A stretch of 32,000 bases of DNA from Candidatus Iainarchaeum sp. (GTDB taxonomy: Archaea; Iainarchaeota; Iainarchaeia; Iainarchaeales; JAZDEL01). The position numbers were made by a program, and so were the translations under genes. Shown piece by piece: positions 2,254-23,398 of the stretch. The notes under the pieces were generated by a model. The model was not told where the DNA came from, did not search any database, and saw only the letters and a program-made list of their open reading frames with translations. Each line of letters begins with the position of its first letter. Within the stretch, counting starts at the first letter, position 1. The stretch lies in contig JAZDEL010000009.1 in assembly GCA_043808785.1 (NCBI GenBank), positions 60,001-92,000 on the forward strand. The letters run 5' to 3'.

Positions 2254-5200
2254 TTATTTCCTTCCCTTCCTGCGCTTTGCACTTCTGCCCGATGCCTTTC
2301 TCGCCCTCTTTGCCGGCTTCTCTATTTCCTCAAGCACCGAGAACATCGGCACAGGCGCCTCTTCCTTGGGTTTCCTTATTGCGCTGACCGCTGCGAAAAC
2401 AACGAGCGCCACAACTATGAGCAGCAGCACAAGTATTACTATGTTCTGCATGCTCACAAGGCTTACAAGGCCGGTGCCTATTGCTACAGGCTCGGCCTCG
2501 GTTTCATTTCCCGCGCCTTCCGCAGACTTTCCGAGTTCCACTGTTATGTCCCTTATGAAAGTGCCCTCGTTGGTTTTGAAAACCACGGGCACTATCGCCC
2601 TTGCAGCGCTGAAATCTTCGGGCAGGTCGAGGTACATGGTAACCTTTGTGGACGAATTCGCCTCTATAGTTGTGCTTTCCACATTGAATACCGCGCTGTA
2701 GGACATCGCCTCCGCGGAAGTTATCATCAGGGTTTTTGTCGAGTTGTTGTTCAGTTCGAAACTTACAACAGCGTCAACAGCGCCCTCCTTCTTCATCTCG
2801 TCAAGCCTGACGCCGCTGACCTTTATGTCGACAACTTCCTCCTTCACTTCCCTGCCCTTTATGTTGAGCTTTATTTCCGCAGTGGACACAAACCCGCGGT
2901 CCGTCTTTGCAGTTATTTCTATAGTGCCCTCCTCAGGGGTTATGTCAGCGGGCGGGCTTATTATGAAGTAAACATCAGTCCTCTCGCCCTTTCCCAGCTT
3001 TACCTTGGCCCGGTCTGGGTAAGCCCAGCCCTTGTTAAAGCTCAGGGTTACTTCCTGCGCAACCACGCCGCGGTTCTCCAGCGAGAGAACCTGCTTTGTA
3101 CCCTCGCATTCCGCTACATCGAGCCTGTACTTCATTATTATCAGGTCCACACCGAAGCAGCTCGCTTCGCTGAGGTAGTTTATGGGTTTCTTCTCCGTAG
3201 CCTTGGAGTGCGCGGATTCGGCAGTTGCCTGCATCTCCGCTTCCGAAGCGTCATTTGGCACATTCACGGTTATGGGCACAAGTGCCGAGCCCATTCCGTC
3301 TATGCTTACCTTTCCCTCGGCCTTAACCCACTTCGGCAGGATGCTCAGCGAGAGTTCCTGCTTTTTGGTCCCGAGGTTATTTATCGCTATGGAGTTTGTT
3401 GATGCAACGCCCCTGCATACGTTAAGTTCGGGCGGCAGGAGCAGTATGTTGTAGCAGTCCTCCACGCCGAGCGTGTACCCCTTTGAGAGCATCGCTTTGT
3501 CCGCGCTGACCTTTACAGTGAACGCCTTCTGCACAGGCGTTGCCAGCTCTATATTGAGCTTCTTCGCGAGCCCGCTGAAAACCGCAGACAGGCTGTCCGC
3601 GCTTTTCACATCATAATATTCCCCGCCCGTGGTTTCCACAATCTGCTTGAGCTGTGCCATGCCTTCCTGGTCTATGTCGAAGCCTATCGCATAAACAACT
3701 ATTCCCTTCCCCTTGAGCCTTTTTGCCGCGTCGGCAACATTGCCCTTGCATGTTTCCTTGCCGTCGCTCACAAGTATGACGTATTTGCTTGCGGCTCCCG
3801 CTTTGAAGTCCGATGCAGCGCCGTCAAGCGCGTTAGCCAAGGGTGTCTTTCCCCTGGGGCTCATGCCCTCTATTTTGTCGGTAATCTTCGCTATGTCGAG
3901 CTTTGAAACAGGAACAAGCAGCTGCGAAGCCTCGCATGCAGCGCCCTGCCCGAAAACCCTGAGGCCGAGCTGGACTTCGGTTATGCTGTTTGCGAACGAA
4001 ACTATCGCGTTCTTTGCCGCGTCCATCTTGTTGTGCGAGTTTATGCTCTCGACCATGCTGCCGCTCGAGTCCATAAGTATCTCGATGGCAATGTCGTTCC
4101 TCGACACCTTTGCCCCTTCCTCATAGCCCGAGGTTCCGAGGCTTGCGGTGAATGCCGCCTTTTCGCCCGCCTTCAGCGAAAATTCCTGCCCGCTGAGCGA
4201 AGCGTTTATGCCCTCTACGCTTACCCTTGCATCAACATCCTTTGTGCCCGTGTTCCTGAGCTCAAAGCTGTACTTTGCCCCTTCCTCAGCGCACGCGTTT
4301 TCCGCGCCGCCTGTTTTCTCGAGCGTTATGCCGTAGCAGTCGCTGAGCGTGAATTTGAATGTCTCCGTTGCCGTGTAATCGAACTTGCCGGATTTGGCGA
4401 TTATGCTTATCTCATAATCCCCTGCCCTTTCCGAGGTTTCCCTGAAATCAAGCCTTGCCTTTTTGCTCTGCCCGGCGCCGAGCGCAAACTCCTTTTCGCT
4501 GAGGCCGACCCATGAGGGTGCGCTCATCCCGAGCTTCACTATATCGTCCATCTTTCCGCTGTTTGTAATCTCGATCTCCGCGCTTGTGGCTTCCTCGAGG
4601 CATGCCTCGTGGCTGCCTGCAGCGCCTATGCCTATCTCGAACTCCTGCCCCTGCCCGAGCACGTACTGCGCGCTGTCCGCGGAGAAGAAATTCGGGTTCT
4701 GCAGGTATGCAACCGCATCAAAACTGTAAGTGCCGAGTTTTGCGTCGCACGGCGCCTGCACCCTAAGGTTCGTGTGTTCGGGCGTTCCCTTTGCGACCAT
4801 GAAATCGGTTTTGCCGAGCGTGAACCATCCGCTGTCAAGGCCGTTCAGCCCGAGCCTTACGCTCTCCCTCAGCTGGTTGGGTATGAGCGAGCGGTTTGTA
4901 AGCTTAACATCGTATTCCTTCGCCTCGCACTGCGTGGCGTTCTGCTTTGTAGGGGTTATATCCACATCCACAAAGTGCCCCTGCTTGATGTTTATGTTGC
5001 AGGTTACCCTTGCCGAGATGTCGTTCTTTACCACAATATCCGTCTTGTAACTGCCCGGTTCCGCGTAGCAGTCCGCGATGGTGTAAACGCGCAGTTCCCT
5101 GCACTCGTTCTTCGCAAGCGTTACAGTCGAGGGGATTATGTTTACCCACTGGGCTATCGGGCCCTCGGCGTATGTCTTGTAAGTGTGCGTCACGCCCGAA

Positions 5201-5340
5201 TCGTTGCAGAGCTTGAGGTTATTCACGGAAAGTTCGCACTGCACGCTCGTGCTCGAGCATTCGCCCTCAAGCGATGCAGCCCTCGCTATTCCGCCGAAAA
5301 CCAGCAGTATAAACCCCAGGATTACAAGCCTTTTGTCCAT
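2254..5340 (-). CDS. large surface protein: signal peptide, tandem beta-sandwich (CARDB/NEW3-like) modules, central vWA domain, C-terminal TM anchor and Lys/Arg tail
   Basis: The track ORF is 2254..5349 with a GTG start. I prefer ATG 5340 (MDKRLVILGFILLVFGGIARAAS, a signal peptide) because GAGGTG (5347-5352, minus strand) sits 6 nt upstream of it. A vWA domain with a complete MIDAS is present. The C-terminus is IVILVLLLIVVALVVFAAVSAI followed by RKPK...KRRKGRK. Confidence 0.9.
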   Translation of the reverse strand: MDKRLVILGFILLVFGGIARAASLEGECSSTSVQCELSVNNLKLCNDSGVTHTYKTYAEGPIAQWVNIIPSTVTLAKNECRELRVYTIADCYAEPGSYKTDIVVKNDISARVTCNINIKQGHFVDVDITPTKQNATQCEAKEYDVKLTNRSLIPNQLRESVRLGLNGLDSGWFTLGKTDFMVAKGTPEHTNLRVQAPCDAKLGTYSFDAVAYLQNPNFFSADSAQYVLGQGQEFEIGIGAAGSHEACLEEATSAEIEITNSGKMDDIVKLGMSAPSWVGLSEKEFALGAGQSKKARLDFRETSERAGDYEISIIAKSGKFDYTATETFKFTLSDCYGITLEKTGGAENACAEEGAKYSFELRNTGTKDVDARVSVEGINASLSGQEFSLKAGEKAAFTASLGTSGYEEGAKVSRNDIAIEILMDSSGSMVESINSHNKMDAAKNAIVSFANSITEVQLGLRVFGQGAACEASQLLVPVSKLDIAKITDKIEGMSPRGKTPLANALDGAASDFKAGAASKYVILVSDGKETCKGNVADAAKRLKGKGIVVYAIGFDIDQEGMAQLKQIVETTGGEYYDVKSADSLSAVFSGLAKKLNIELATPVQKAFTVKVSADKAMLSKGYTLGVEDCYNILLLPPELNVCRGVASTNSIAINNLGTKKQELSLSILPKWVKAEGKVSIDGMGSALVPITVNVPNDASEAEMQATAESAHSKATEKKPINYLSEASCFGVDLIIMKYRLDVAECEGTKQVLSLENRGVVAQEVTLSFNKGWAYPDRAKVKLGKGERTDVYFIISPPADITPEEGTIEITAKTDRGFVSTAEIKLNIKGREVKEEVVDIKVSGVRLDEMKKEGAVDAVVSFELNNNSTKTLMITSAEAMSYSAVFNVESTTIEANSSTKVTMYLDLPEDFSAARAIVPVVFKTNEGTFIRDITVELGKSAEGAGNETEAEPVAIGTGLVSLVSMQNIVILVLLLIVVALVVFAAVSAIRKPKEEAPVPMFSVLEEIEKPAKRARKASGRSAKRRKGRK
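3556..4098 (-). other. von Willebrand factor A (vWA) domain with complete MIDAS motif
   Basis: The domain reads IEILMDSSGSM ... GKTPLANAL ... YVILVSDGKE ... VVYAIGFDID. This gives DxSxS (D427, S429, S431), T502 and D529, numbered from the GTG at 5349. Confidence 0.85.
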
Positions 5341-5355
5341 GTTTTCCACCTCAAG

Positions 5356-5420
5356 CTTTGTTTTTTCAGTTTCGCCCTTTGTTTTTCTGTTTGTTCGCCC
5401 TTTGTTTTTTTCAGTTTTTT
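5356..5420. repeat. three tandem 20-23 nt units (CTTTG-T5-7-C(A)GTTT..CGC) in the spacer between the 747-aa and vWA genes
   Basis: The units are ctttgttttttcagtttcgc, cctttgtttttctgtttgttcgc and cctttgtttttttcagtttttt. On the coding (minus) strand they read as A-rich AAAAACAAAGG(GCGAA) repeats. Confidence 0.6.
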
Positions 5421-5426
5421 GGAACC

Positions 5427-7670
5427 TTACCTCGCCCTGACCATAATCCTTCTAGGCAGGCCATACCCTGTTTTTTTGTTACTTCCAAGTAGTAAAACTA
5501 GATAAATTATGGTCAGTAACATTAATATAGCTAACCCTGCGCCCAAAACTGCGGGGTTTGCGAGGTTCAGGAAACCCGTAATTCCCGCGGGGAGCCATCC
5601 GTTTCCGCCGCCCTGGCCTGTTGAATTTCCCCCGGTGCTTCCGCTGCCCGCACCCTGGCTTCCGCCAGCGCCGCCCCGGACATTAATCCTCATTCCCGCG
5701 GTTGCTATGTACTTCTCGCCCTTTGCCTCGAGCGTTGCATCATACTCCCTGGGCAGTGCGTTCTCCGCTGCATAAATCCTGCCGCTTACTGTTGCGCTGC
5801 CGAACGGCGCTATGGATGTTATGCGCGTTGTGGGGAAATAAACGCCGTTTCCGAGGCCCCAGAGCCTTATTGTTATGTTCTCCACGGTTTCCGCGGAGTT
5901 GTTCTTAATTGTGAACTCGAGGGTTTTCTCCTGCCCCGCGGCAATGGAAACATTGCCTGCGTAACCCGAGATTTCAAGTACGCCTTCCGCCCTTCCCGCG
6001 TTTCCCGCGTCCTCCACAACCCTGAATTTCAGTTCGTACTCCTCATTGAATCCTCCGCCCGCCTTTGCGTGCAGGGTTATTTCATAATTCCCGATTTCCG
6101 CATCGTAACCCGGGACAACGCTTACATAAACGCTTTTGCTTTCCCCAATTCCGAGGCCGAAATAACTGTCGGAAATGTCGTGGCTTATTGTTTCATAAGG
6201 GTTGTCGAGGTGCAGTGAAACGTGCTCCTCGTAATCCCCCTTGTTGCTGAACACTATTTCGAAAACCTCGAGGTCCTGCGCGCTGCATGCCCTTTCCTCA
6301 AGGCCGTTGTTCTTTACCTCCACGCGCATATCGTGCATCCTGCCGACATTTACCTGCACGAATTCCTTCTCCTCGCCTTTCGCGTTCCATGCGTAAAGCG
6401 CTATCTCGTGCCACCCTGTCTTGTCGGTTTCCCCTGCCTTAACCGTAATTTTGCCGCTGTAGGTTTTCCCGCCCTGCAGGGTTATGCCGTAGCTTTTCAG
6501 CGAGTTCGGCAAATCTCCCGTGCTTGAAAGCCTTATGTCCTGCTTTTCGCCGAGCAGGTTTTTTACCGTGAACCCTATGCTCACCTGTGCGCCCTTTTCA
6601 ACATCATATTTAACCGCATCAACGGAAAGCTCGAAAGGCCTGCCTGCTTCATCCGAGCACTCGGTTATGCCGAACCCGACAGTGCTTTCGGAATAAACCC
6701 TCTTTGCCTGCCCCTGTGCCTGCACAGCCTGGGCATAAAGGGGCACGTAATAGTAACCCGCGGCGGTTGTGCGGTTTATGTTTATCTTAAGTGTGACTTC
6801 CTCGCTTTCCCAAGCGCCGAGCCAGAGTTCATTCTCCCCAAACGAGGGAAGGAACATTTCCGAAACCGCGGAAAGGGTTATGTGCTGTTCCTTTGCGGTG
6901 TTGTTTTCGATGTAAACGGAAATTTCCTTTGTGTAAGAGTCCTTGCAGAATTCCATGCCCTGCTCGGGGAGTATGCCTATACTGCCCGCGCTCCCGCTTC
7001 CGCTGTTGCTGTTCGCGCCCTTGACATTAACCTTAATTTTCATTTTTTCCGTGAAGGTTCCGCTTGCCTCGGTTTCGCTGCCCCGCTCGCCCCCTTCTGC
7101 GCGGTAGCCCATTATCACATTTATTGCATATGCCCCTTTCCCCGCCCAGTCCTTTGCATTTACATGCATCGCGAATTTGGTGCTCTGCCCTTTCGCAAGG
7201 CAGAATTCCCCTTTCGGAAGAACGGCATAAATTCCATCGTAATTTGATTCCGTGCGCAGTTCCACGCACGCCCTGCCTTCGTAAAGGTTCTGTATTGTGA
7301 GCGCAACTCCCGCAGATGCGGAAGCGCCAAGCTCGATGTTACTGTTGTCCGCGCTTATTGCCACATCGCCCGTGCCGAAAGGCACCGCGGAAACGAAAAC
7401 CGAAAGCATAATCAGGGCGAACGCGAAAGCGAAAAGGTTCGCAACCTTGAGTTTTCCCACCTTGATTTTCCTTGCCCTCTTCGCAATCGCGGGCACCGGG
7501 TTGGCGATTTTCACACCTGCAACCTTGCCCACAATCGCGGGCACGGGGTTAACGAGCTTTACGCCCCTAACTTTTCCCGCAAGCGCTGTAAAGGGTTTGG
7601 CTATCCTAACCCTGCGAACCGCCTTAATTAGCCCTGAAAAAGGGCTTTTCGCGCGTGTTTTTGTTTTCAT
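5427..7670 (-). CDS. surface protein: basic repeat-containing N-terminal tail, TM/signal anchor, tandem beta-sandwich modules, Gly-rich linker, C-terminal TM anchor
   Basis: The 747-aa ORF starts at ATG 7670. Residues 1-75 are Lys/Arg-rich 16-aa repeats, followed by the helix VANLFAFAFALIMLSVFVSAV. Repeated 'TIKN/TVKN/FSNKG'-type strands resemble CARDB/COG1470 envelope proteins. The C-terminus is GGAGGSQGAGSGSTGGNSTGQGGGNG...GFLNL..., a TM helix, then PRRIMVRAR. Confidence 0.85.
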   Translation of the reverse strand: MKTKTRAKSPFSGLIKAVRRVRIAKPFTALAGKVRGVKLVNPVPAIVGKVAGVKIANPVPAIAKRARKIKVGKLKVANLFAFAFALIMLSVFVSAVPFGTGDVAISADNSNIELGASASAGVALTIQNLYEGRACVELRTESNYDGIYAVLPKGEFCLAKGQSTKFAMHVNAKDWAGKGAYAINVIMGYRAEGGERGSETEASGTFTEKMKIKVNVKGANSNSGSGSAGSIGILPEQGMEFCKDSYTKEISVYIENNTAKEQHITLSAVSEMFLPSFGENELWLGAWESEEVTLKININRTTAAGYYYVPLYAQAVQAQGQAKRVYSESTVGFGITECSDEAGRPFELSVDAVKYDVEKGAQVSIGFTVKNLLGEKQDIRLSSTGDLPNSLKSYGITLQGGKTYSGKITVKAGETDKTGWHEIALYAWNAKGEEKEFVQVNVGRMHDMRVEVKNNGLEERACSAQDLEVFEIVFSNKGDYEEHVSLHLDNPYETISHDISDSYFGLGIGESKSVYVSVVPGYDAEIGNYEITLHAKAGGGFNEEYELKFRVVEDAGNAGRAEGVLEISGYAGNVSIAAGQEKTLEFTIKNNSAETVENITIRLWGLGNGVYFPTTRITSIAPFGSATVSGRIYAAENALPREYDATLEAKGEKYIATAGMRINVRGGAGGSQGAGSGSTGGNSTGQGGGNGWLPAGITGFLNLANPAVLGAGLAILMLLTIIYLVLLLGSNKKTGYGLPRRIMVRAR
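7446..7670 (-). repeat. 48-bp / 16-residue periodic basic repeat encoding the N-terminal tail of the 747-aa protein
   Basis: The peptide units are RAKSPFSGLIKAVRRVR, IAKPFTALAGKVRGVK, LVNPVPAIVGKVAGVK and IANPVPAIAKRARKIK. The DNA shows caatcgcgggcac(c/g)gggtt at 7483-7502 and again at 7531-7550. Confidence 0.8.
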
Positions 7671-7698
7671 TTTTCTTCCCCCCCGCCTCTTAAGGGCA

Positions 7699-7929
7699 TT
7701 ACTGCCCCCAGGACTGGATCTTTATTTTCGCCTTCTTTGTGGCTTCAATAAGTCCCGCGAACGGGTTCCTTATTTTCGCCCTGCGCAGGCGCTTCGCCGC
7801 AGAAGCAAAAGCCTTGCCCGCGGTTTTGGGCGCGCCCTTCATGAATGCCGCAAGCGGGCTAACCGCTTTGCGCATTGTTTTTGCCCTTATCTTTTTGCCT
7901 TTTGTGTTTTTTGCCTTGTGTGTTTTCAT
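7699..7929 (-). CDS. 76-aa highly basic protein, paralogous to the N-terminal tail of the downstream 747-aa protein
   Basis: ATG 7929 is preceded by GGAGG (7937-7941, minus strand) with a 7-nt spacer, directly after the upstream gene's stop. The sequence MKTHKAK...KAVSPLAAFMKG...RAKIRNPFAGLIEATKKAKIKI carries the same (K/R)I.NP(F/V)..(L/I) motif as residues 1-75 of the next gene. Confidence 0.65.
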   Translation of the reverse strand: MKTHKAKNTKGKKIRAKTMRKAVSPLAAFMKGAPKTAGKAFASAAKRLRRAKIRNPFAGLIEATKKAKIKIQSWGQ

Positions 7930-7941
7930 TGTATTGCCTCC

Positions 7942-8637
7942 TTATCCCGCTATCCTGTCTTTCAGGCCCTCGAGCTTGGGGTCCCTTGGTTCAAGTGCGT
8001 TTCCGCGCCTTTTTGCCGAAGCCCCCTTGTTTTTGGGCATTGAAACCCTTGCAGTGAGCCTTGAGATAAACGCAATAAGCAGCACTGCCGCAATAACCAC
8101 AAGCACGATATCGAGCAGGAGCTCTCCCGTTGCCCCGCTGAAAATTCCCCCGAATGCGGTAACCATTCCGCCGAGGTTAAACAGCCCTTCCGTTTCCCCG
8201 TTGCCTGTTCCGCCACCCTGTGTTCCGCCCTGAACTGTTCCTGCGCTTTCGCCCGCCTTTAAAAACCCAAGTGTTATTTTCCTCTCGTCCCTGGTTCCGC
8301 CGAGGGTTACCGCGACAGTCGCGGTGTATGTCGAGCCGCGCAGTTTCTCCGAGGGCGGGAATTTTATTTTCACTTCCGCCTTTTCGCCCGCGCCGAGGAA
8401 TTCCGGCGCGCTTATTTCGCTATCCACAGGAGCGAAAGCCTCTATCATGAGGCCCTTCCCTTCCCCCGAAGGGTTTGATACCGTGAACCTTATCTCGCCG
8501 CCGCTGTCCCCGATTTTAACGTTTTCGGGGAACGCCGCTACCGCGGCATATGCCGTGCCCGCAACCGCAAGGCAGGCAAGAATTGCGGCAACCGCGAACA
8601 CGGATACCAGTGGTTTACAAGCCATGAGAACAACCAT
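7942..8637 (-). CDS. secreted single beta-sandwich protein with Gly-rich linker, C-terminal TM anchor and basic tail
   Basis: The signal peptide is KPLVSVFAVAAILACLAVAGTAYA. A CARDB-like module follows (GGEIRFTVSNPSGEGKGLMIEAF...GAGEKAEVKIKF...YTATVAVT). Then come GGTQGGGTGNGETEGLFNL, the TM helix LLLDIVLVVIAAVLLIAFI and a basic tail. An alternative start is ATG 8625. Confidence 0.8.
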   Translation of the reverse strand: MVVLMACKPLVSVFAVAAILACLAVAGTAYAAVAAFPENVKIGDSGGEIRFTVSNPSGEGKGLMIEAFAPVDSEISAPEFLGAGEKAEVKIKFPPSEKLRGSTYTATVAVTLGGTRDERKITLGFLKAGESAGTVQGGTQGGGTGNGETEGLFNLGGMVTAFGGIFSGATGELLLDIVLVVIAAVLLIAFISRLTARVSMPKNKGASAKRRGNALEPRDPKLEGLKDRIAG

Positions 8638-8778: not shown

Positions 8779-11478
8779 ATGGGGGCGGGGGAACTGGCTT
8801 TGTTGCTTAAATCCGGAGTTTGGGGCGGGGTTTTGCTTGCAATGGCTGCCCTGGCGTTGTTCGGGGCACTGATTTACGTTGCGCTTCCCGGCTTGGATTT
8901 GCAGGGCACGCCTGCGCAGGGTCAAAACGCGCCTTCGCGGGGCACCGGGCTTTTCACGCTTTTCTTCAGCACATGTAACCCCAACGGAAACTGCCAGCCC
9001 CAGCAGGGCGAGAGCTATTCAACCTGCCCCGAGGATTGCTGCGATGCCGACTGCACGGATTACCAGGACAGCCTCTGCCATGCCGAATGCCAGGGCTACA
9101 ACGGATGCTCGTTCACAAGCGGGTGCAACGGCCTTGCAATAGACACAAATATCTGCATCAGCACAACGCAGCGTGCCGCGTGCTGCTCAGGCTCCGGGCA
9201 GAGCTGCTCGCAGAACCAGTACTGTTCGGGGGGAGGCTGCATTACCTGCTCCACAGTTTGCGACAACACCTGCCAGGGTGCGCAGTGCTACGGCATAGAC
9301 CCGGATTGCGATGCCTCGGGCAACCCCACAGGCCAGTGCTGCGGCAACGGCGTATGCAATGTTGCGGAAACATGCTTCACCTGCAGTGCGGACTGCGGCA
9401 GCCCGGCATGCACCGCGGACGCGAACTGCAATGACGGCAACTCCTCGACAAAGGATGCATGCATAGGCGCAGGCACATGCTCCGCATACTGCCAGAACTG
9501 CTATGTTGCCTGCGACAGCAATGCCTCGTGCAATGACGGCAATTCATTCACGCAGGACACCTGCACTAATCCCGGCACCTGCAATTCCGCGTGCTCTTAC
9601 TGCACGATTAAGTGCAGTTCCGATGCCGCATGCAATGACAATAACTCCTCCACAACCGACTTATGCATAAGCCCGGGTACATGCCCCTCCTACTGCTCTA
9701 ACGCCTCCTCCGGGTGTACGCCGGCCTGCTACACGGACGCGAACTGCAGCGACAGCAATTCGTTCACGCAGGACACATGCACTAACGCGGGCACATGCAC
9801 CGCAGCCTGCCTGCACACCCCATGCACAATCGCCTGCACCTCGAACGCGCAGTGCGACGACAGCAATTCCCTTACTTCGGACACCTGCACTAACGCGGGC
9901 ACATGCACTGCGTCATGCACGCATTCCGCCGCTTCCTGCGAAATCATATGCGCATCGAATGCCGACTGCGACGACGGCATTGCCTCCACAACCGACACCT
10001 GCACAAATGCAGGCACATGCAACGCATACTGCGAGAACACCCTTGCGGAAGAGGGGCAGGATGGGCAGCAGGGCGGGGAGGATAACTGCGCAATCGCATG
10101 CTCCTCTGCGGGGGATTGCGACGACCGCGATGCCCTTACCTCGGATTCCTGCGGCGCTGCCGGAACCTGCAGTGCGGAATGCCGCCATGCGCTTGCCTCC
10201 CCCGCTGCCCTGAACTTCAAAACCTCCCCGCCGAAAACAATACAGCGCGGGCAGAAACTTACGCTTGCTGCCGAGTTCCTTGCCGGCGGCAATCCCGTGG
10301 CAGGCGCCGCACTTGCGCTTTCAGGCACTAAAGGCGAATCCGCAAAGTTCGGGGCAGCAAAAGGCGGAGGCTACCTGGTTTCGTATGAAATCCCCATAGA
10401 TGCCGCGCTCGGGGAGCGCGAGTTCACGGTTTCCGCAAAAAAGGTGCACGCGCTCGGAACGCTTGAGGCCGAGAAAAAGTTCAAGGTTAACGTCGGGCCT
10501 GCGGAGCTCCTTATAACCCTCCTTAAGCCGAAAGCCGCGGACATTAATGCAGGCATCCCTGTAGCCATCGAGGTCGGCATCGCATACCCCTCGGGGGAAG
10601 CCGCAAATGATGCCGAACTGACAGCGGAAATCAACGGCGCGCCCGTTGTTTTCACAAAGCTGCGCGACGGTGTTTATTCCGCGCAGTACACATTCACTTC
10701 CGCGCAGGCGGGCGCGGCAGACCTAACCATGCAGGCAACCGATGCCTACGCAAACCTCGGCTCGAAATCGGTTTCCCTGAATGTGCAGAAGCAGGGCATT
10801 GACCTGCTCCTTGCCCTGCTTTTGGTGCTTTTCGGCGCGCTTGTTCTCGGCATAATAGGCCTCATACTCCTGCTAATAGCCGCGTTGCTTGCCTTTGCCT
10901 CCCTTGCTTATATGAAGGAGCGCAGGGTTGCTGAAATTCTGGCGAGAAAAAAGTGGCTTTTTGCCGCTAAAAATTCCGCAGCTGAAAAGCTCAGGAAAAA
11001 CGAAATCAGCAGGGCGCAATATGATGAACTGTCCGCGAAATACGACTTGGAGATAAAAAAACTTGACGAGTCGCTTGCATTCCTTGAAAAGAGGCGCCCA
11101 ATAGGCGACATATTCCACGATTTGGGGGTTAAGGCAAGGGCATTCATAGATTCGACCGCGCCTGTGCAGCCTAAGCAGGGCGGGGCTGTGCAGGGCAAGA
11201 CTTCAGGGCCTGCACAGGCCGAACCAGGCAAACCATGGCGTGCCAAGCAGGGCGCACAGGCGCAGGCCAAGGCAGCCCCTCCCAAGCCGCTTTCGCCAGA
11301 GGAACGTGCAAAGGTCGATACTGAAATAAACGAAGTTAAGGAAACAATGAAAATCCTTGAAAAGGAATATTTCAAGCGCGCCTTGACGGATCAGGAATAT
11401 AGGCAGAGGATGTTCGACCTGAAGACAAGGCTGCACCTTCTCGAGCTTAAGAAGGGCGGGGGCCTGAGGAAGGGGTAA
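8779..11478 (+). CDS. bitopic Cys-rich repeat surface protein: N-terminal anchor, about 400-aa Cys-rich ectodomain with 7 tandem six-Cys modules, Ig-like region, TM helix, cytoplasmic coiled-coil tail
   Basis: The 899-aa ORF has an N-terminal helix VWGGVLLAMAALALFGALIYVAL. CGNG.C....C..DC-type modules are followed by seven C-x5-C-(N/D)D-x-N-x2-T-x-D-x-C-x5-C-x3-C repeats. The second TM is LLLALLLVLFGALVLGIIGLILLLIAALLAFASLAY. The K/E/Q-rich tail has SHOCT-like motifs. Confidence 0.9.
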   Translation: MGAGELALLLKSGVWGGVLLAMAALALFGALIYVALPGLDLQGTPAQGQNAPSRGTGLFTLFFSTCNPNGNCQPQQGESYSTCPEDCCDADCTDYQDSLCHAECQGYNGCSFTSGCNGLAIDTNICISTTQRAACCSGSGQSCSQNQYCSGGGCITCSTVCDNTCQGAQCYGIDPDCDASGNPTGQCCGNGVCNVAETCFTCSADCGSPACTADANCNDGNSSTKDACIGAGTCSAYCQNCYVACDSNASCNDGNSFTQDTCTNPGTCNSACSYCTIKCSSDAACNDNNSSTTDLCISPGTCPSYCSNASSGCTPACYTDANCSDSNSFTQDTCTNAGTCTAACLHTPCTIACTSNAQCDDSNSLTSDTCTNAGTCTASCTHSAASCEIICASNADCDDGIASTTDTCTNAGTCNAYCENTLAEEGQDGQQGGEDNCAIACSSAGDCDDRDALTSDSCGAAGTCSAECRHALASPAALNFKTSPPKTIQRGQKLTLAAEFLAGGNPVAGAALALSGTKGESAKFGAAKGGGYLVSYEIPIDAALGEREFTVSAKKVHALGTLEAEKKFKVNVGPAELLITLLKPKAADINAGIPVAIEVGIAYPSGEAANDAELTAEINGAPVVFTKLRDGVYSAQYTFTSAQAGAADLTMQATDAYANLGSKSVSLNVQKQGIDLLLALLLVLFGALVLGIIGLILLLIAALLAFASLAYMKERRVAEILARKKWLFAAKNSAAEKLRKNEISRAQYDELSAKYDLEIKKLDESLAFLEKRRPIGDIFHDLGVKARAFIDSTAPVQPKQGGAVQGKTSGPAQAEPGKPWRAKQGAQAQAKAAPPKPLSPEERAKVDTEINEVKETMKILEKEYFKRALTDQEYRQRMFDLKTRLHLLELKKGGGLRKG
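9409..10185 (+). repeat. seven tandem about 34-50-codon six-cysteine modules (in-frame coding repeat)
   Basis: Modules start at C211, C245, C279, C317, C353, C391 and C441. Modules 2, 4 and 5 share long near-identical DNA stretches (ttcacgcaggacac(c/a)tgcactaa... and tgcactaacgcgggcacatgcac). Confidence 0.85.
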
Positions 11479-11585: not shown

Positions 11586-12248
11586 TCAAATCCAGCGCAC
11601 TCCCTTCTTTCCCCTCGAAACTATCGCACCCAGCACGTCGCTCTTTGTTATTATCCCTCTTATTTTCCCCCCGCGCCCGACAAGTACGGCTTGCCCCGAA
11701 TCAAGCAGTGCGGAAACAACCCCGAGCGGGGAATTTTCCCTTATCACAGGCATTGCCTCATCCATGACTTCCTTCACAAGCATCTTTCCCAGGTCTGCGG
11801 GCTTCTCGGACTTGCCTATGCGCGTGAGTATAAACATTTCCGAAACCGTCCCCACTGGCTTGTCATCCTCGAAAACAGGCAATTGGGAAACCGCGTTCTT
11901 TTTCATCACCTGCACCGCCCTTTTCACGGTGTCCTGCGGCCTTACGCTTATCACCCTTGCGCTCATCACGTCCTTTGCCTGCAGTTCGGTTTCCCTGTGC
12001 ATCGCGTCAAGCAAATCGAATATGCGCTTGGCATTATCGTAACTTGGCACAAGCACGCCCGACTCCATCTTTGCAATCAGCGACTGCGACACAGCTGCCT
12101 TTGCGGCGAGTTCCGCCTGGGTAAGCCCAAATTGTTTTCGCCTTTGTTTTATTTCATTTAATTCGGGAAGCACATGAACCAACCCCGCCCCTGCCCATTG
12201 TGCCCGCCAAATGCGGGAAGCATATTCGATTATTATGCCTGCAAACAT
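11586..12248 (-). CDS. XRE-type HTH plus CBS-pair transcriptional regulator
   Basis: The HTH is LNEIKQRRKQFGLTQAELAAKAAVSQSLIAKMESG. Two CBS motifs follow (VMSARVISVRPQDTVKRAVQVMKKNAVSQLPVFEDDKPVGTVSE; VMDEAMPVIRENSPLGVVSALLDSGQAVLVGRGGKIRGIITKSDVL). The true start may be downstream (TTG or GTG near 12176-12185). Confidence 0.85.
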   Translation of the reverse strand: MFAGIIIEYASRIWRAQWAGAGLVHVLPELNEIKQRRKQFGLTQAELAAKAAVSQSLIAKMESGVLVPSYDNAKRIFDLLDAMHRETELQAKDVMSARVISVRPQDTVKRAVQVMKKNAVSQLPVFEDDKPVGTVSEMFILTRIGKSEKPADLGKMLVKEVMDEAMPVIRENSPLGVVSALLDSGQAVLVGRGGKIRGIITKSDVLGAIVSRGKKGVRWI

Positions 12249-12357
12249 TTATAACCCTTATTCCTATGCGAATATTTTATTCAATAATTATTATTAATAA
12301 TCCCGTGCACTATTTGTGTAATATCATTCATATTCTCTTCACTTCGGAGGTTTTCTT

Positions 12358-13566
12358 ATGAAACAGGGAAAATATTTCTTCACGTCGGAGTCCGTAACCG
12401 AGGGGCACCCGGACAAGATGTGCGACCAGATAAGCGATGCCGTGCTCGATGCGGTTTTCGAAAAGGACCCTAACGCACGCGTTGCGTGCGAGTGCGTAAC
12501 TAAAACAGGGATTGTTTTCGTCACGGGCGAGATTACCACAAATACCTATGTCGATATCCAGCGCGTCGTGCGCGACACGATAAAGGACATAGGCTACGAC
12601 GACCCTTCTTTCGGGTTCGACGCCGACGGCTGCGGGGTTATTGCCGCAATCTCCGAGCAGAGCCCCGATATATCCATGGGCGTTACAGAGGGCGAGGGGC
12701 ACGAGCAAGGGGCGGGAGACCAGGGAATGATGTTCGGCTACGCGACAAATGAAACCCCCGAATACATGCCTTTGCCTATTGTGCTCGCGCACAAGCTTGT
12801 GAAGAAACTCTCCGAAGTGCGCAGGGCGAAGGAACTCACATATTTGCGCCCGGACGGAAAAAGCCAGGTTACCGTTGAATACGACAGCGGAAAGCCGATA
12901 AGGGTTGACGCTGTAGTGATTGCGGCACAGCACGCGCCCGATATAACGCACGACCAGATTAAGCAGGACATTATAGGGAAAGTGATTAAGCCCGTCTGCG
13001 GCGAGTGGATTGACGGGAAAACAAAATTCTTCGTGAACGAGACGGGAAAGTTCATTGTTGGCGGCCCTGTTGCGGATTCAGGCCTCACGGGGAGAAAGAT
13101 AATCGTGGACACATACGGCGGCCACGGCTCGCACGGAGGGGGGTGCTTCTCGGGAAAGGACCCCTCGAAAGTGGACAGGAGCGGGGCATATGCTGCGCGC
13201 TACATTGCGAAGAACATAGTCGCTGCCGGCCTCGCGGACAAGTGCGAGGTGCAGTTGGCATACGCAATCGGCGTTGCCGAACCTGTCAGCATTCTGGTGC
13301 ACACCTTCCGCACCAACAAAATCCCCGAGGAAAAAATCTCGGAGTTGGTTCGCAAACACTTCCCCCTGAAGCCGAGGGCGATAATTGACCATCTCAAACT
13401 GCGCAGGCCGATTTTCAGGAAAACCGCGGCATTCGGGCATTTCGGCAGGAACGACCCCGATTTCACATGGGAGAAAACGGATAAAGTCGAGGCGCTGAAG
13501 AAGGATGCAGGGCACCTGCACAAGCCAGCAGTGAGCGGGGATAAGGTGCCGCTGGACGGCGCCTGA
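12358..13566 (+). CDS. metK: S-adenosylmethionine synthetase, bacterial/eukaryotic type
   Basis: [37 protein letters not shown] and [50 protein letters not shown] are near-identical to the E. coli MetK signatures. GGAGG at 12346-12350 lies 7 nt upstream of the ATG. Confidence 0.97.
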
Positions 13567-17593: not shown

Positions 17594-18535
17594 TCAAACA
17601 TATTTCACATAAACCCCGAAGAACTTATCAAATGTCTTCTTGTATTTCTCAAGCATGAACCTTTCGAGGTTCGCGGTGTAGCCGTTGTCGAAATCCTGCA
17701 GGCATTTCAGGTATGCCGTGCGCTGGCTTTTCCTGATTATGAGCGGGGCATAGCCCGCGTTCACAAGCGCGACATTTATCAGGAATCTCCCCACGCGGCC
17801 GTTGCCGTCGTCGAAAGGGTGGATTTTCTCAAACCTGCCGTGGAAGAGCGCGGCTTTCTGCAGGGGGTGCATCTTTTTCTCCCCGCCAAACCAATCCATG
17901 AGTTTTTTCATTTCCTCCCCGACCTTTTCCGGAGCCGCTGTTTCAACTTCCCTGCCGAGCAGGAAGTTAGGAATTTTTTTATAGCCTGTTTCGATGCCCA
18001 TGTCCTTTACCAGGATTTTGTGCATCTTTATTATGTCCGCCTCCTGTGCCCTGAATTTCTTCTTCAGTATGAGGCCGACCACCTCGCGGCTGTTCCTGGT
18101 TTCATAAACCTCCCTCAGGTCAGTTCCCTCGGGAGCCTTGCCCTCGAACAGCACTATTGCGACATCCTTCAAAGTGAGCGAGTTGCCTTCCAGGGCGTTC
18201 GACTCATATGTGAAGTTTACAGTGAACCTGTCGAACAGGTCCTGAAGCTGCTTCTTCGTGAGTTTCGAGATTATTTTCTTGTATTCCCGCCTTGTTTTCT
18301 CAAGTTTGGCGATTTGCTCCCTTGTAAAAATGCCGTCCGTCCCGAACCTTTCGAGCGCGGCTTTTGCGCGCAGTTCGTTCTCCTTTTTCGAGAAGTATTC
18401 CCTCAGGGCTGGCGTAAGGGCTTTTTTGTCCGTGCGCCTGCCTATCTTCACGACCCTGCCGTTCTCCAGCCTGACCGAATGCACGGCATAGCGGTACTTT
18501 TTCCCCTTTATCCTCTTCTCGGTGAAATAAACCAT
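17594..18535 (-). CDS. Fic/DOC-family protein (AMPylase-type), class II with internal inhibitory motif
   Basis: The Fic active-site motif HPFDDGNGRVGR lies at nt 17786-17821. The inhibitory-helix motif (S/T)xxxE(G/N) is present as YESNALEGN. The track ORF starts at GTG 18553, but that GTG lies inside the promoter palindrome only 10 nt from the TATA box. ATG 18535 (MVYFTEKRIKG) is 28 nt from the box. Confidence 0.9.
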   Translation of the reverse strand: MVYFTEKRIKGKKYRYAVHSVRLENGRVVKIGRRTDKKALTPALREYFSKKENELRAKAALERFGTDGIFTREQIAKLEKTRREYKKIISKLTKKQLQDLFDRFTVNFTYESNALEGNSLTLKDVAIVLFEGKAPEGTDLREVYETRNSREVVGLILKKKFRAQEADIIKMHKILVKDMGIETGYKKIPNFLLGREVETAAPEKVGEEMKKLMDWFGGEKKMHPLQKAALFHGRFEKIHPFDDGNGRVGRFLINVALVNAGYAPLIIRKSQRTAYLKCLQDFDNGYTANLERFMLEKYKKTFDKFFGVYVKYV

Positions 18536-18541
18536 ACTAAA

Positions 18542-18588
18542 AGTTAACCCCACAGATTATTTAAATATATGGTTTTTGTGGGGTTAAC
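18542..18588 (-). promoter_or_regulatory. 47-bp palindromic element, copy B, enclosing the Fic TATA box (candidate operator/promoter)
   Basis: AGTTAACCCCAC-AGATTATTTAAATATATGGTTTTT-GTGGGGTTAAC has perfect 11-bp inverted arms. The spacer contains TATTTAAATA, centred about 28 nt upstream of ATG 18535. Confidence 0.7.
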
Positions 18589-18604: not shown

Positions 18605-19837
18605 TCAGCCGAACGCCCCTAATATCTTTTCAGTTGTCCGTGCAAGCAAATCAATCTCTTCCTTAGTGTTGTACAAATAGAAACTCGCCCTGCACAGGCC
18701 CTCGCTGTTGAAGCCGCTTACCAAAGGTTCGGCACAGTGCATTCCCGAGCGGATTGCGATGTTCTCCGCCTCGTCAAGCGCAAGCGCGAGCTCGTGCGGC
18801 TGCAATTTAAGGGCGTCGAACATTGTAATTGCGCCCTGTTTCTCGGCGTCTTTCGGGCAGTACAGCCTGATTTTTCCCCTACCCTCAAGTTCGCCCATAA
18901 CCTTCAGCGCATGCCTTGTGAGGTCTTTGCCGTGCGCGTGCACATTATCCATCCCTATTCTCTGCAGGTAATCCACAGCAGCGCCAAGCCCTATCCCTCC
19001 CGCAATATGCGGCGTCCCTGCCTCGAACTTGTACGGCAGCACATTCCATGTCGCGCTATGCAGTTTAACCTCGTGTATCATGTCCCCGCCGTAGAGGAAG
19101 GGCGGCATTTTTTCGAGCAGTTCCTTCCTGCCGCAGAGCACGCCTATTCCTGTCGGCCCGAGCATCTTGTGCCCTGAGAACGCGTAAAAATCCGCGCCTA
19201 TTTTTTTCACGTCCACGGGCATGTGGGGAACAGCCTGCGCGCCGTCGACAACAAACAATGCGCCGTTCTCGTGCGCGATTTTCCCTATCTCGCGCACGGG
19301 GTTAATGCTCGCCACGGTGTTCGAGGCGTGCATAACCGAAACCAGGCGCGTGTTTTTGTTTATTTTCTTCTTGAGGTCTTCCATGTCGAGGGTGTAGTCC
19401 ACATTGAGGCCTGCAAACTCGAGCTTTGCCTCCCCCTTCCTCTCGAGAAACTGCCACGGCACGATGTTCGAGTGGTGCTCCATTTTTGTGACAACGATAT
19501 TGCTTCCTGCACCGAAAATTCCCTGTTCGCGCAGGGAATACATCAAAAGGTTCAGGCTTTCCGTTGTGTTGCGCGTGAAGATTGTTTGCTCAGGGCTTGC
19601 ACCGACGAACTTGCCTACCCTTTTGTGCGCATCTTCCCACTCGCGCGAGGCGTCCTCGCTCATCCTGTGCACGCCGCGGTGTATGTTTGCCGTAAACTCC
19701 GTGTAATAGCGGTTCATTGCATCGAGAACCTGCCGCGGTTTCAGGGAAGTTGCGGCATTGTCAAGGTAGGTTATCGGCTTGCCGTTAACCCTGCGCTGCA
19801 AAACGGGGAAATCCGCGCGGATTTTTTCGGTGTTCAT
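18605..19837 (-). CDS. sufS: cysteine desulfurase, SufS/CsdA-type (class V aminotransferase)
   Basis: The signatures are FPVL...ITYLDNAATSLKP, NIHRGVHRMS, the PLP-lysine motif SGHKMLGPTGIGVL and the active-site loop RSGMHCAEPL. Confidence 0.95.
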   Translation of the reverse strand: MNTEKIRADFPVLQRRVNGKPITYLDNAATSLKPRQVLDAMNRYYTEFTANIHRGVHRMSEDASREWEDAHKRVGKFVGASPEQTIFTRNTTESLNLLMYSLREQGIFGAGSNIVVTKMEHHSNIVPWQFLERKGEAKLEFAGLNVDYTLDMEDLKKKINKNTRLVSVMHASNTVASINPVREIGKIAHENGALFVVDGAQAVPHMPVDVKKIGADFYAFSGHKMLGPTGIGVLCGRKELLEKMPPFLYGGDMIHEVKLHSATWNVLPYKFEAGTPHIAGGIGLGAAVDYLQRIGMDNVHAHGKDLTRHALKVMGELEGRGKIRLYCPKDAEKQGAITMFDALKLQPHELALALDEAENIAIRSGMHCAEPLVSGFNSEGLCRASFYLYNTKEEIDLLARTTEKILGAFG

Positions 19838-20445: not shown

Positions 20446-20455
20446 CTTAAAATAA
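20446..20455 (+). promoter_or_regulatory. TATA-box-like element (CTTAAAATAA) for the PHP gene
   Basis: It is centred about 26-27 nt upstream of ATG 20477 with no Shine-Dalgarno. It could also serve the divergent minus-strand gene. Confidence 0.45.
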
Positions 20456-20476
20456 CGTTGCCTCCAAGTATAGCGT

Positions 20477-21136
20477 ATGCGCCTCGACATGCACGTGCAC
20501 AGCAAATACAGCCATGACGCGCTCACAAAGCCCGAAACCCTTGTAGCAAGGGCGAAGAAGCTCGGCATTGGCTTTGCGCTCACTGACCACAACACAGGCA
20601 AGGGCTGGGAACTCTGCGAAAGGCTTGCGCAGGAGCAGGGCGTTCCTTTCATTCGCGGCGAGGAGATAAACGTTTACCATGAGGGCAGGTTCTGCGGCGA
20701 GCTTATGGGCCTTTTCATGAACGCGCCCGTACGCAAGCGCGAGTATGCGGATGTTATAGACGAACTGCACGCGCAGGGCGCGCTGGTAAGCGTGCCGCAC
20801 CCGTTTGATACGTTCCGCGCGCCTTTCGAATTTTTGGGGCAGTGCTCGGCAAGGATTGACCTTGTCGAGGTCCTGAATTCCCGCGTGCAGAACCAGGAGT
20901 TTAATTCCGCGGCGCTCGAATTCGCGCGCGCGCACAAAATGCCCGGCATCGCGGGCAGCGACGCCCATACGCCCGAGGAACTGGGAAACGCTTACGTTGC
21001 GCTCGAGGCTTCCTCGCTTGAGGAGGCGAGGCGCCTGCTGGTGCGCGGGAAATGCACCTGCCACGGCAAGCCTTCGGGATTTTTTGTGCATGTGCAGACC
21101 TGGCTCAGGAAGCGCGGGATGATGGGGGAGAGGTAG
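20477..21136 (+). CDS. PHP-family metal-dependent phosphoesterase
   Basis: The N-terminal MRLDMHVHSKYSHDA, then FALTDHNT and later GSDAHTPEELG, match the PHP (polymerase/histidinol phosphatase) metal-ligand pattern. Confidence 0.85.
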   Translation: MRLDMHVHSKYSHDALTKPETLVARAKKLGIGFALTDHNTGKGWELCERLAQEQGVPFIRGEEINVYHEGRFCGELMGLFMNAPVRKREYADVIDELHAQGALVSVPHPFDTFRAPFEFLGQCSARIDLVEVLNSRVQNQEFNSAALEFARAHKMPGIAGSDAHTPEELGNAYVALEASSLEEARRLLVRGKCTCHGKPSGFFVHVQTWLRKRGMMGER

Positions 21137-21209
21137 GGTGCCAAAAAATGCCTGCAGGGGCGGAAGGCAAAAAACAAAAAAATTCGCGGTTAATTCGGAG
21201 GTGGTTGTT

Positions 21210-21536
21210 TTGATAGAGTTCGGCGAATGGCAGAAAGTGGAACTGAGGATAGGCACGATAAAAAGCGCGGAGGAAGTGCAGGGAAAGGACAAGCTGTACA
21301 GGCTCTCGGTAGATGTCGGCGAAGCAGCGCCCCGCACCCTTGTTGCGGGAATAAGGCAGTTCCGCACCGTGGGTGAATTGAATGGGAAGCAGATAGTTGT
21401 TGTCGCCAACCTCAAGCCCGCGAAAATTGCCGGCATTGAGAGCAACGGGATGCTGCTTGCGGTGGGGAAAGGCGCGGATGATTTTGCTTTGCTCACGACG
21501 GACAGCGAGGCAAAGGCAGGAGCGAGGGTTGAATAG
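21210..21536 (+). CDS. tRNA-binding domain protein (CsaA/Trbp111/MetRS-C-terminal type)
   Basis: FGEWQKVELRIGTIKSAEEVQGKDKLYRLSVDVGE...RTLVAGIRQF...LNGKQIVVVANLKPAKIAGIESNGMLLAV is the classic OB-fold tRNA-binding signature. The track ORF begins at GTG 21138. GGAGG at 21197-21201 lies 8 nt before the in-frame TTG at 21210, which gives the usual length of about 109 aa. Confidence 0.85.
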   Translation: MIEFGEWQKVELRIGTIKSAEEVQGKDKLYRLSVDVGEAAPRTLVAGIRQFRTVGELNGKQIVVVANLKPAKIAGIESNGMLLAVGKGADDFALLTTDSEAKAGARVE

Positions 21537-21537
21537 G

Positions 21538-22110
21538 CTACTTGCCCAGCATGCTTGAGATGTCTTTCCTTGCCGTGTTAAGTATTTTGTCGTAGTTGGC
21601 AAGTATTTTTTTCTCGTGCCCGTTTTTTGGCCCGTGTTTGCGGATTCCCTCATAAAGGTTGTATTCATCTATCGAACCCTTAATTGATATCGGAAGTTCG
21701 CCTTTGTTTAAGACCCTTTGCGCCTCCACCCATGCTATCCGTTCATTGCTGAGGTAAAGTTCCTTTTTCAGCAGACCGTATTTTGTCTTGCGCGAGATAT
21801 TGTCTGAGTTAAGCATGTTAAAAACCTGCCTTGCGTCGGGGTTAACCTTCCCCTTGGCGGATGACAGGAATTCTCTGAAGGATGCCATCTCCTCTTTTGC
21901 CAAATTAACCTCGCCTTTATTTGACAGCACCATATATTTTACAGTTCCTGTGGGGCGCGGTATGGGCCTTGTGTCTACTATTGCCGTTGGCTGCTTCACA
22001 CCCCTGTAATTTTGTTTAATTGCGTGCCCTGCGCCGATGCCAAGCCCGACAATCCCGACGCCTATGCCTATTTTTTTGCCCAGTCCTAATTTTCTTTTAA
22101 CCCCTGCCAT
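21538..22110 (-). CDS. hypothetical N-terminally anchored protein
   Basis: The 190-aa ORF starts MAGVKRKLGLGKKIGIGVGIVGLGIGAG (a Gly-rich hydrophobic anchor), then continues as a Lys/Asn-rich soluble domain. I recognise no family. It is AT-richer than its neighbours (spot counts 28/60 and 26/60 G+C at 21541-21660). Confidence 0.55.
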   Translation of the reverse strand: MAGVKRKLGLGKKIGIGVGIVGLGIGAGHAIKQNYRGVKQPTAIVDTRPIPRPTGTVKYMVLSNKGEVNLAKEEMASFREFLSSAKGKVNPDARQVFNMLNSDNISRKTKYGLLKKELYLSNERIAWVEAQRVLNKGELPISIKGSIDEYNLYEGIRKHGPKNGHEKKILANYDKILNTARKDISSMLGK

Positions 22111-22939: not shown

Positions 22940-23398
22940 GTGCCTGCGGAATGGCTGAAAAAGGAAATCGATTTTTACAAAAACATGCGTTCGCCGCTGA
23001 TACCTTTGCTGCACGAAATCCGCAGGAAGGAGGGGCACCTTTCGCGCGAGAGCCTTGTTTTCATTTCCCGCGAGCTCGGCATACCGTTAAGCCACATATA
23101 TGAGGCAGCGACCTTTTACGCTGAATTCAACCTGAACCCCAAAGGAAAAAACGTCCTCAGGGTTTGCACAGGCACGACCTGCAATGTAAAGGGCGGGAGC
23201 TTCTGCCTGCGCTTCCTGGAGAGGGTTCTTGAAATAAAGCCTGGAGAAACGACCGATAACGGCAAGTTCACTCTTGAAACAGTCAACTGCTTCGGCGCAT
23301 GCAGTGCCGCGCCGGTTATTGAAATAAACGGCGTCCTGCACACAAAGATGGGTTTGCAGGAACTTAAGGAAATAATTTCAAAGATGGGGGCGAAGTGA
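22940..23398 (+). CDS. hydC: NuoE/HydC-type thioredoxin-like [2Fe-2S] subunit
   Basis: LIPLLHEIRRKEGHLS...ISRELGIPLSHIYEAATFYAEF is present. The cluster ligands are CTGTTC (C-x4-C) and CFGACSAAP (C-x3-C). The start is GTG. Confidence 0.9.
   Translation: MPAEWLKKEIDFYKNMRSPLIPLLHEIRRKEGHLSRESLVFISRELGIPLSHIYEAATFYAEFNLNPKGKNVLRVCTGTTCNVKGGSFCLRFLERVLEIKPGETTDNGKFTLETVNCFGACSAAPVIEINGVLHTKMGLQELKEIISKMGAK

Follow-up and report, generated by a model that had tools for sequence, protein, structure and literature searches.

A 16-residue basic repeat in two adjacent reading frames of an archaeal surface-protein operon: a case for a divided signal peptide extension

In a 32-kb stretch of DNA from Candidatus Iainarchaeum sp. 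(contig JAZDEL010000009.1, positions 60,001 to 92,000; hereafter the window), an open reading frame (ORF) of 76 amino acids (aa) and the N-terminal tail of the 747-aa surface protein encoded next to it carry one and the same 16-residue basic repeat. The repeat was previously undescribed and is confined to two metagenomic contigs of one clade, the window and a sister contig, L003. We lean, with modest confidence, towards the view that it forms a lineage-specific array, which grew within the n-region of a signal peptide, was split by an insertion, and acts as a cytoplasmic extension of the signal peptide or anchor that binds the membrane surface. Both ORFs lie in one densely packed operon on the minus strand, which holds the 231-aa, 76-aa, 747-aa and 1031-aa von Willebrand factor A (VWA) genes. 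Coordinates are those of the minus strand of the window unless a strand is stated, and the parts of the two repeat-bearing ORFs are as follows.

7937-7941, minus: GGAGG, Shine-Dalgarno sequence of the 76-aa ORF, 7 nucleotides (nt) ahead of its ATG and kept in L003 (TAAGGAGGCATAACAATG)
7699-7929, minus: 76-aa ORF, made up of a 21-aa Lys-rich leader, units S1-S3, IKIQSWGQ and TAA; net charge +22
7867-7929, minus: 21-aa Lys-rich leader of the 76-aa ORF
7822-7866, minus: unit S1 of the 76-aa ORF, AVSPLAAFMKGAPKT, 15 aa
7774-7821, minus: unit S2 of the 76-aa ORF, AGKAFASAAKRLRRAK, with Ala in place of Pro
7726-7773, minus: unit S3 of the 76-aa ORF, IRNPFAGLIEATKKAK
7699-7701, minus: TAA stop of the 76-aa ORF
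7650-7722, minus: 73-nt insertion relative to L003, from the DNA alignment, its edges uncertain by a few bases
7678-7689, minus: G-rich Shine-Dalgarno-like stretch GAGGCGGGGGGG, inside the 73-nt insertion
7668-7670, minus: ATG of the 747-aa ORF, inside the 73-nt insertion, with MKTKTRA
5427-7670, minus: 747-aa ORF, immunoglobulin (Ig)-like/NPCBM_assoc surface protein
7461-7670, minus: N-terminal tail of the 747-aa protein, MKTKTR and units U1-U4, with zero acidic residues
7605-7652, minus: unit U1, AKSPFSGLIKAVRRVR
7557-7604, minus: unit U2, IAKPFTALAGKVRGVK
7509-7556, minus: unit U3, LVNPVPAIVGKVAGVK
7461-7508, minus: unit U4, IANPVPAIAKRARKIK
7386-7460, minus: original signal-peptide part, VGKLKVAN (n-region) and LFAFAFALIMLSVFVSA (h/c region), aligned with orthologous short signal peptides
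7458-7460, minus: GTG (V71), first codon of the signal-peptide part and possible internal start
5427-7385, minus: body of the 747-aa protein, with Ig-like/NPCBM_assoc domains (Pfam PF10633), a C-terminal membrane anchor and a short basic tail

The unit follows the approximate pattern [I/L/V]-x-[N/S/K]-P-[F/V]-x-[A/G]-[L/I]-x-x-[K/R]-x-[R/K]-x-[V/I/A]-[K/R], and a loose regular expression for this motif found six matches in the six-frame translation of the 32 kb, all within 7446-7929. An earlier note on this DNA had claimed that the two ORFs share one repeat, and this is borne out: units can be located in both, and the motif matches nowhere else in the six frames of the window. The note also rightly placed four units ahead of the first hydrophobic helix (7461-7670), where residues 1-70 of the 747-aa protein consist of MKTKTR and four exact 16-residue units, with VGKLKVAN and the hydrophobic core coming next. 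Its 48-nt DNA period was recovered as well, between 7484-7531 and 7532-7579 (73% identity). That the 76-aa ORF carries the motif is likewise correct, but it does so in three units and not in two. If the last unit is excepted, pairwise unit identity is 19-50%, and the unit count differs, with seven in the window versus six in L003; the unit-by-unit identities point to turnover or conversion inside the arrays. A 15-nt tandem duplication at 7444-7471 (1.9 copies, 92% identity, encoding KIKVG/KLKVA) coincides with the exact border of the last unit and the original n-region, and is a trace of local slippage.

The relationship between the two ORFs is best seen in L003, where the orthologue of the 747-aa protein is a single 815-aa ORF and there is no free small ORF. 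Its N-terminus reads MNTHKAKAMGKKTKIAGKAAK, followed by about six units (including IASHVSGFAKKARKIK, IKNHFAVLAKRVRKVK, VSNPFAGVVKRARKVK, ITNPFAAVAERVQEIR and IVNPIPAIAKRARKIK), and IGKFKVAN and the hydrophobic core come after the last of them. The L003 array is thus one unbroken 129-aa N-terminal extension of six units, with a net charge of +36. A profile built from the window units only scored 64.3 bits on this tail, with six units in register and an expectation value (E) of 5e-13 when the database size was set to 1.84e9; the same profile gave no other match in the six-frame ORFs of contigs L001, L003, L005 and L007.

In the window, the TAA of the 231-aa gene (7942-7944) directly abuts GGAGG, and the 76-aa ORF begins 12 nt past that TAA, so the strong Shine-Dalgarno sequence attributed to this ORF in the earlier note is present at 7937-7941. 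However, the orthologues of the upstream stop, GGAGG and ATG that head the 76-aa ORF stand at the start of the L003 815-aa ORF, and the start region aligns base for base. The gaps in the 5' half of the DNA alignment (9, 21 and 3 nt) are all in frame, and from U1 on the two genes are collinear, with U1-U4 matching L003 units c-f and the body of the 747-aa protein sharing 68% identity with the L003 orthologue, compared with 44% for P0002, a more distant homologue. What the window has in addition is 73 nt (7650-7722), in which the 76-aa ORF runs through its final codons to TAA, a Shine-Dalgarno-like stretch comes next, and ATG with MKTKTRA opens the 747-aa ORF; the latter accordingly starts 28 nt beyond the stop of the 76-aa ORF, preceded by GAGGCGGGGGGG. 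As 73 is no multiple of 3, the 76-aa and 747-aa ORFs lie in different frames. The shared start site and the 73-nt insertion together indicate that the 76-aa ORF is the cut-off front half of one tail, the result of a gene fission, and the GGAGG at 7937-7941 would then belong to the start site from which the surface-protein gene was translated ancestrally. Fission requires one event, whereas an ancestral split followed by exact re-fusion in L003 requires two, and by parsimony the fission is therefore placed in the window.

No source for the 73-nt insert was found in the window or the fetched loci, neither of which holds a second copy. The possibility that it is a copy of the gene's own start (TAA, Shine-Dalgarno sequence, ATG-AAA-ACA) was rejected, as the best match is a 10-mer and 24% of shuffles reach its score; for the same reason, the shared start that had been read into MKTHKAK and MKTKTRAK, a 10-nt identity, is not significant. 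A 16-nt exact match to the insert at 19346-19361 lies inside a cysteine desulfurase gene (..NKNTRL..) and was judged to be due to chance. Similarly, a search for an RNA element or hairpin at the junction gave no Rfam match and a fold z-score of -0.92.

In seven syntenic loci (L001, L004, L005, L006, L007, L008 and L009), the orthologue of the surface protein begins with an ordinary short signal peptide, and neither the tail nor the small ORF is found; most of these loci have an S-adenosylmethionine synthetase and an HTH-CBS regulator beside the operon. P0002 begins directly with its signal peptide (MKMNTNILKTIFVLF...), 10 nt after the upstream gene, and is without tail or small ORF. The first codons, MNT[N/H], are common to the tail-less P0002 and L003, from which it follows that the insertion of the array took place downstream of the initiator region and ahead of the hydrophobic core. 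Since the distant orthologues have a short signal peptide only, the array is a recent enlargement of the n-region and is peculiar to the small clade formed by the window and L003.

The repeat found no match in Pfam (also at E <= 10), NCBIfam, PHROGs, a PDB profile search or Rfam, and there is no relative among 1.84e9 representative proteins, in agreement with the earlier note, which recognised the motif from no known domain. A two-unit profile run against these 1.84 billion proteins returned the two window proteins and a weak match, P0004, only. Proteins of the source contig are part of this library, so none of the genome's other called proteins has the repeat at that threshold. P0004 (581 aa, E 5.7e-4) was rejected as a relative, as it shares the helix-start motif alone and has no 16-residue array; it contains five long repeats, each with NPSSA(V/L)IGRIRDAKL. 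A word-based homology search with the 76-aa ORF yielded a self-match only, and scans of genome and metagenome contigs with alignments of the 747-aa and 231-aa proteins gave no confirmed relatives. In a word-indexed search of 5.8 billion proteins, the 747-aa protein had one homologue, P0002. Homologues of the 231-aa protein carry the NCBI names Candidatus Micrarchaeota and Candidatus Diapherotrites, and the closest of them, P0008 (74% identity), is encoded on Logan contig L003 in the same gene order. These names suggest that the window stems from a DPANN-type archaeon, which the TATA-like upstream regions support.

Comparison of the window with L003 by the method of Nei and Gojobori shows that the tail behaves as coding sequence. 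Nonsynonymous and synonymous divergence (dN and dS) in the tail are 0.415 and 1.13, giving a ratio (omega) of 0.37, against 0.32 in the body. In the membrane-proximal unit, U4, omega falls to 0.13, and amino acid identity to the last L003 unit reaches 88%. Overall, the tail is evolving approximately twice as fast as the body (47% versus 68% protein identity). For the 76-aa ORF against L003 residues 1-57, the proportions of nonsynonymous and synonymous differences (pN and pS) are 0.375 and 0.76. In L003 the codon at the position of window V71 (GTG) is ATA, and no ATG, GTG or TTG occurs between the last unit and the hydrophobic core; the tail there is in frame with the body and has no alternative start, and thus is no annotation artefact. 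The earlier note had raised the concern that homologues might start downstream of the repeat. The L003 tail answers it, but the distant homologues do lack the repeat DNA altogether. A 248-aa ORF on the plus strand (7297-8043), which spans the whole of the region described here, was rejected as a shadow ORF because it is antisense to three genes of the minus strand whose protein products are conserved in L003 and L001; in it, the Lys codons read backwards as a hydrophobic repeat of the IAGTGL type.

Net charge is +21 over 78 residues in the window tail, +22 over 76 in the 76-aa ORF and +36 over 129 in L003, with 0-2 acidic residues. Across 13 units, the mean helical hydrophobic moment is 0.477, compared with 0.227 +/- 0.031 after shuffling, and none of 2000 shuffles reaches it, which upholds the basic amphipathic character noted earlier. 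At 100 degrees the moment of each unit lies within 0.39-0.53, the value for a beta-strand is low, and every helix presents a regular hydrophobic stripe of F/L/I/V. The pair N/S-P that opens each unit is a classical helix N-cap with Pro at N1. AlphaFold2 models made with no alignment place helices at 25-32, 35-50 and 56-66 of the 76-aa ORF, starting at the Pro positions (predicted local distance difference test score, pLDDT, 66.5), and at 10-21, 44-50 and 61-68 of the tail, with the core helix at 76-95 (pLDDT 57). The array is followed by a Sec-type signal peptide layout, in which the charged n-region VGKLKVAN precedes the hydrophobic core in LFAFAFALIMLSVFVSA. V-S-A at -3/-1 is conserved in the window, L003 and P0002, which suggests signal peptidase cleavage after VSA95. 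The twin-arginine translocation (Tat) motif, S/T-R-R-x-F-L-K, is absent before the core, as KRARKIKVGKLKVAN has no RR, and the sole RR (AVRRVRI) is over 55 residues farther upstream.

Taken together, these features point to a cytoplasmic, membrane-surface-binding role as the likeliest for the tail. Each unit would form a short cationic amphipathic helix, started by an N-cap residue and Pro. The positive-inside rule would keep the array in the cytoplasm; there it probably rests in the plane of the anionic inner membrane surface, serving either as an oversized n-region or as a cytoplasmic anchor. If the protein is cleaved after VSA95, the tail would be absent from the mature protein and would form part of a 95-aa signal peptide left in the membrane; the equivalent signal peptide in L003 would be about 146 aa. 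The 76-aa product, if made, would be the detached distal half of the array, and translation from the ancestral start probably at least supplies ribosomes to the new ATG 28 nt downstream.

Several points weigh against this interpretation. The direction of the change, fission in the window as opposed to fusion in L003, is a matter of parsimony with two taxa. The array is on two contigs, and its window version comes from a single assembly; the 76-aa protein could be traced to no indexed contig, and hence to no independent assembly. The AlphaFold2 models are of low confidence (pLDDT 57-66). Cleavage by signal peptidase and the translation of both ORFs are predictions from sequence, and the data fit membrane binding, nucleic-acid binding and the lack of any function alike.

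The last of these leads to the alternative that survives best, namely that the array is a neutral by-product, a slippage-prone, purine-rich, Lys-coding 5' end having expanded because an n-region tolerates positive charge. On this account the 76-aa ORF is a decaying remnant, useful for translational coupling only. The absence of the array from seven orthologous operons, the change in unit number (7 versus 6), the 19-50% identities among all but the last unit, the 15-nt duplication at the n-region border, the failure of the 1.84-billion-protein profile search to find relatives, and the occurrence in L003 only of another K-rich 5' extension, carried by the adjacent VWA gene, all agree with it. 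However, an omega of 0.37 is well under 1 and close to that of the body, helical amphipathicity is preserved in 13 of 13 units, the remaining indels are in frame, and the last unit is 88% conserved. We regard neutrality as possible but doubtful.

A role for the 76-aa protein itself, as a functional soluble copy of the tail that acts as competitor or adaptor for a membrane, nucleic-acid or acidic partner, was the suggestion of the earlier note. Both ORFs do contain the identical type of repeat, the strong GGAGG and ATG have been kept with 76 open codons, and pN is below pS in the comparison with the L003 N-terminus. Nevertheless, that ratio cannot separate the window lineage from the one in which the sequence still belongs to the large protein, and the GGAGG and ATG are orthologous to those of the 815-aa gene. 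The expectation that the ORF would be conserved in relatives also fails, because the free ORF exists on this contig only: sister contig L003 has one continuous ORF, and the seven other syntenic loci lack it too. Nor is there any pattern of co-occurrence with a tail-bearing protein to draw on, since L003 has the tail without the free ORF and the seven loci have neither. A free-standing soluble copy is thus unlikely.

Binding of DNA or RNA by the tail and the 76-aa peptide, either to tether nucleic acid to the membrane complex or in a role after release like that of arginine-rich viral signal peptides, would suit the extreme positive charge, the near absence of acidic residues, and a K/A/V/P-rich composition that resembles H1-like tails. 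The hydrophobic stripe fits a membrane or protein interface better, though, no nucleic-acid-binding family was matched in Pfam or NCBIfam, and the array adjoins a membrane-spanning segment, and we therefore consider nucleic-acid binding improbable. To a related proposal we give equally little credence: that a giant cleaved signal peptide (95 aa; about 146 aa in L003) persists with a post-targeting role of its own, for example the organisation of anionic lipids or nucleic-acid tethering under the surface complex, the 76-aa half acting in trans.

It could also be argued that the two ORFs are really one, separated by an assembly or homopolymer error or joined by ribosomal frameshifting. There is a +1 offset between the frames, each remains open throughout a 20-nt stretch, AGATCCAGTCCTGGGGGCAG, that contains GGGGG, deletion of one G would fuse them, and the sequence is known from one contig only. 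Yet the difference from L003 is 73 nt and not 1, and it includes a well-placed Shine-Dalgarno-like stretch and ATG; the bridging peptide (IQSWGSNALKRRGGRKMKTKTRA) departs from the unit pattern; and the other window genes that were checked are full length against Pfam models or their L003/L009 counterparts, which gives no hint of widespread indel errors. Genes suspected of being frameshifted at 20447-22110 (minus strand) proved to be shadows of plus-strand genes in the order of the PHP and tRNA-binding genes of L009. An assembly error at the split is unlikely, and a single ORF of either kind is very improbable. Most improbable of all is that the tail is an annotation artefact and that the protein starts at the in-frame GTG (V71, 7458-7460), with nothing upstream being translated, for although this GTG stands where the distant orthologues begin and has AAGGAA about 8 nt upstream, L003 has ATA and no other start there, tail pN is below pS with in-frame indels, and ribosomes starting at the ATG and Shine-Dalgarno-like stretch at 7670 would meet no stop before the body.

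The operon belongs to a recurrent cluster (window 2254-8637 on the minus strand together with 11586-13566; L001 and L003-L009) that is found across Micrarchaeota- and Diapherotrites-like contigs. It contains a small membrane-anchored protein and an Ig-like protein of 600-815 aa. In all six loci that reach far enough, the third gene encodes a large protein, which in five is of the VWA type and about 1030 aa long, and nearby are an S-adenosylmethionine synthetase (five loci), an HTH-CBS regulator (four) and TrmB (three). The cluster probably specifies a surface complex. Its other two members in the window are as follows.

7942-8637, minus: 231-aa membrane-anchored protein, the upstream gene, whose homologues led to the syntenic loci
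2254-5349, minus: 1031-aa VWA protein

A K/E-rich extension of 35 aa (MFQKTEKTNGKKPKKIAKKLENKGETENIGDEVEK; 4290-4394, plus strand) precedes the signal peptide, MDKRL, of the VWA gene in L003. Homologous in-frame sequence is found in the window (RFQKTEKNKGRTNRKTKGETEKTKLEVEN; 5350-5426, minus strand), but with AGG for ATG it lacks a start codon. Within the operon, this purine-rich 5' extension is the second of its kind, and its coding status differs between the window and L003.

Elsewhere in the window, an 899-aa protein encoded divergently from the operon (8779-11478, plus strand) contains numerous Cys-rich repeats, each about 30 aa long (roughly C..D.N..T.D.C...GTC...C), together with a membrane segment and, at its C-terminus, a region resembling a coiled coil; it has no Pfam or NCBIfam match. 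Three adjacent genes with HydABC-type [FeFe]-hydrogenase domains (2Fe-2S thioredoxin-like, Nuo51-like and large Fe-only hydrogenase subunits), followed by a radical-SAM/SPASM gene, occupy 22940-27135 (plus strand) and are notable for an apparent DPANN archaeon. TATA-like boxes in the upstream regions of window genes have an archaeal look; one near the GTG of a Fic/DOC-domain protein (17594-18553, minus strand) suggests a leaderless transcript.

If the tail is made and functional, it would be a rare prokaryotic example of a very long signal peptide extension built from repeats, such extensions having so far been discussed mainly for eukaryotic and viral proteins. If the proposed history is true, it would also offer a clean case of a repeat domain born de novo in an n-region and then cut into two cistrons by a small insertion. 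For the annotation of DPANN genomes, two cautions follow: small basic ORFs beside envelope genes can be fragments of N-terminal extensions, and the start codons of such genes need comparison with close relatives. The wider significance is limited by the presence of the repeat on two metagenomic contigs only.

Among known systems, the exchangeable apolipoproteins are secreted proteins with Pro-punctuated amphipathic helix repeats of 11 or 22 residues, and cecropins and magainins are cationic amphipathic peptides; the helices of both kinds lie on lipid surfaces. The array resembles all of these in its amphipathic, Pro-delimited helices with Pro/Gly boundaries and a cationic face. It differs from the apolipoproteins in its period (16 residues, or 48 nt) and its predicted cytoplasmic location, and no homology was detected. 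The bacterial nucleoid proteins Hc1/Hc2 and AlgP have Lys/Ala/Pro-rich, H1-like tails with repeats of 4-9 residues and no hydrophobic stripe. These share with the array an extreme Lys/Arg/Ala content and short tandem repeats but are not joined to a signal peptide, and the histone H1-like/HC2 families gave no Pfam or NCBIfam match above noise. A closer parallel in layout is offered by signal peptides with a very long, basic N-terminal part on the cytosolic side. PTPRJ is described as having a long signal peptide with an arginine-rich extension (PMC7725344) and the HERV-K(HML-2) Env signal peptide as a stable 13-kDa product (PMC2649029), the basic cytosolic part in this type attenuating translation or acting after cleavage (PMC7725344, PMC2649029). 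As described there, these proteins are eukaryotic or viral, without a 16-residue repeat or sequence similarity to the array, for which both cleavage and a later role are predictions. Finally, autotransporters and two-partner-secretion proteins of Proteobacteria have an extended signal peptide region (ESPR, PF13018), which, as here, is an additional N-terminal segment set before a full n/h/c signal peptide on a large surface protein, and which many homologues lack. It consists of a single conserved motif of about 25 aa, whereas the present extension is a 70-130-aa array of 16-residue repeats, and neither the two window peptides nor the L003 tail matched it in Pfam at E <= 10. The array works like an N-terminally extended signal peptide, and is a member of none of the systems compared.

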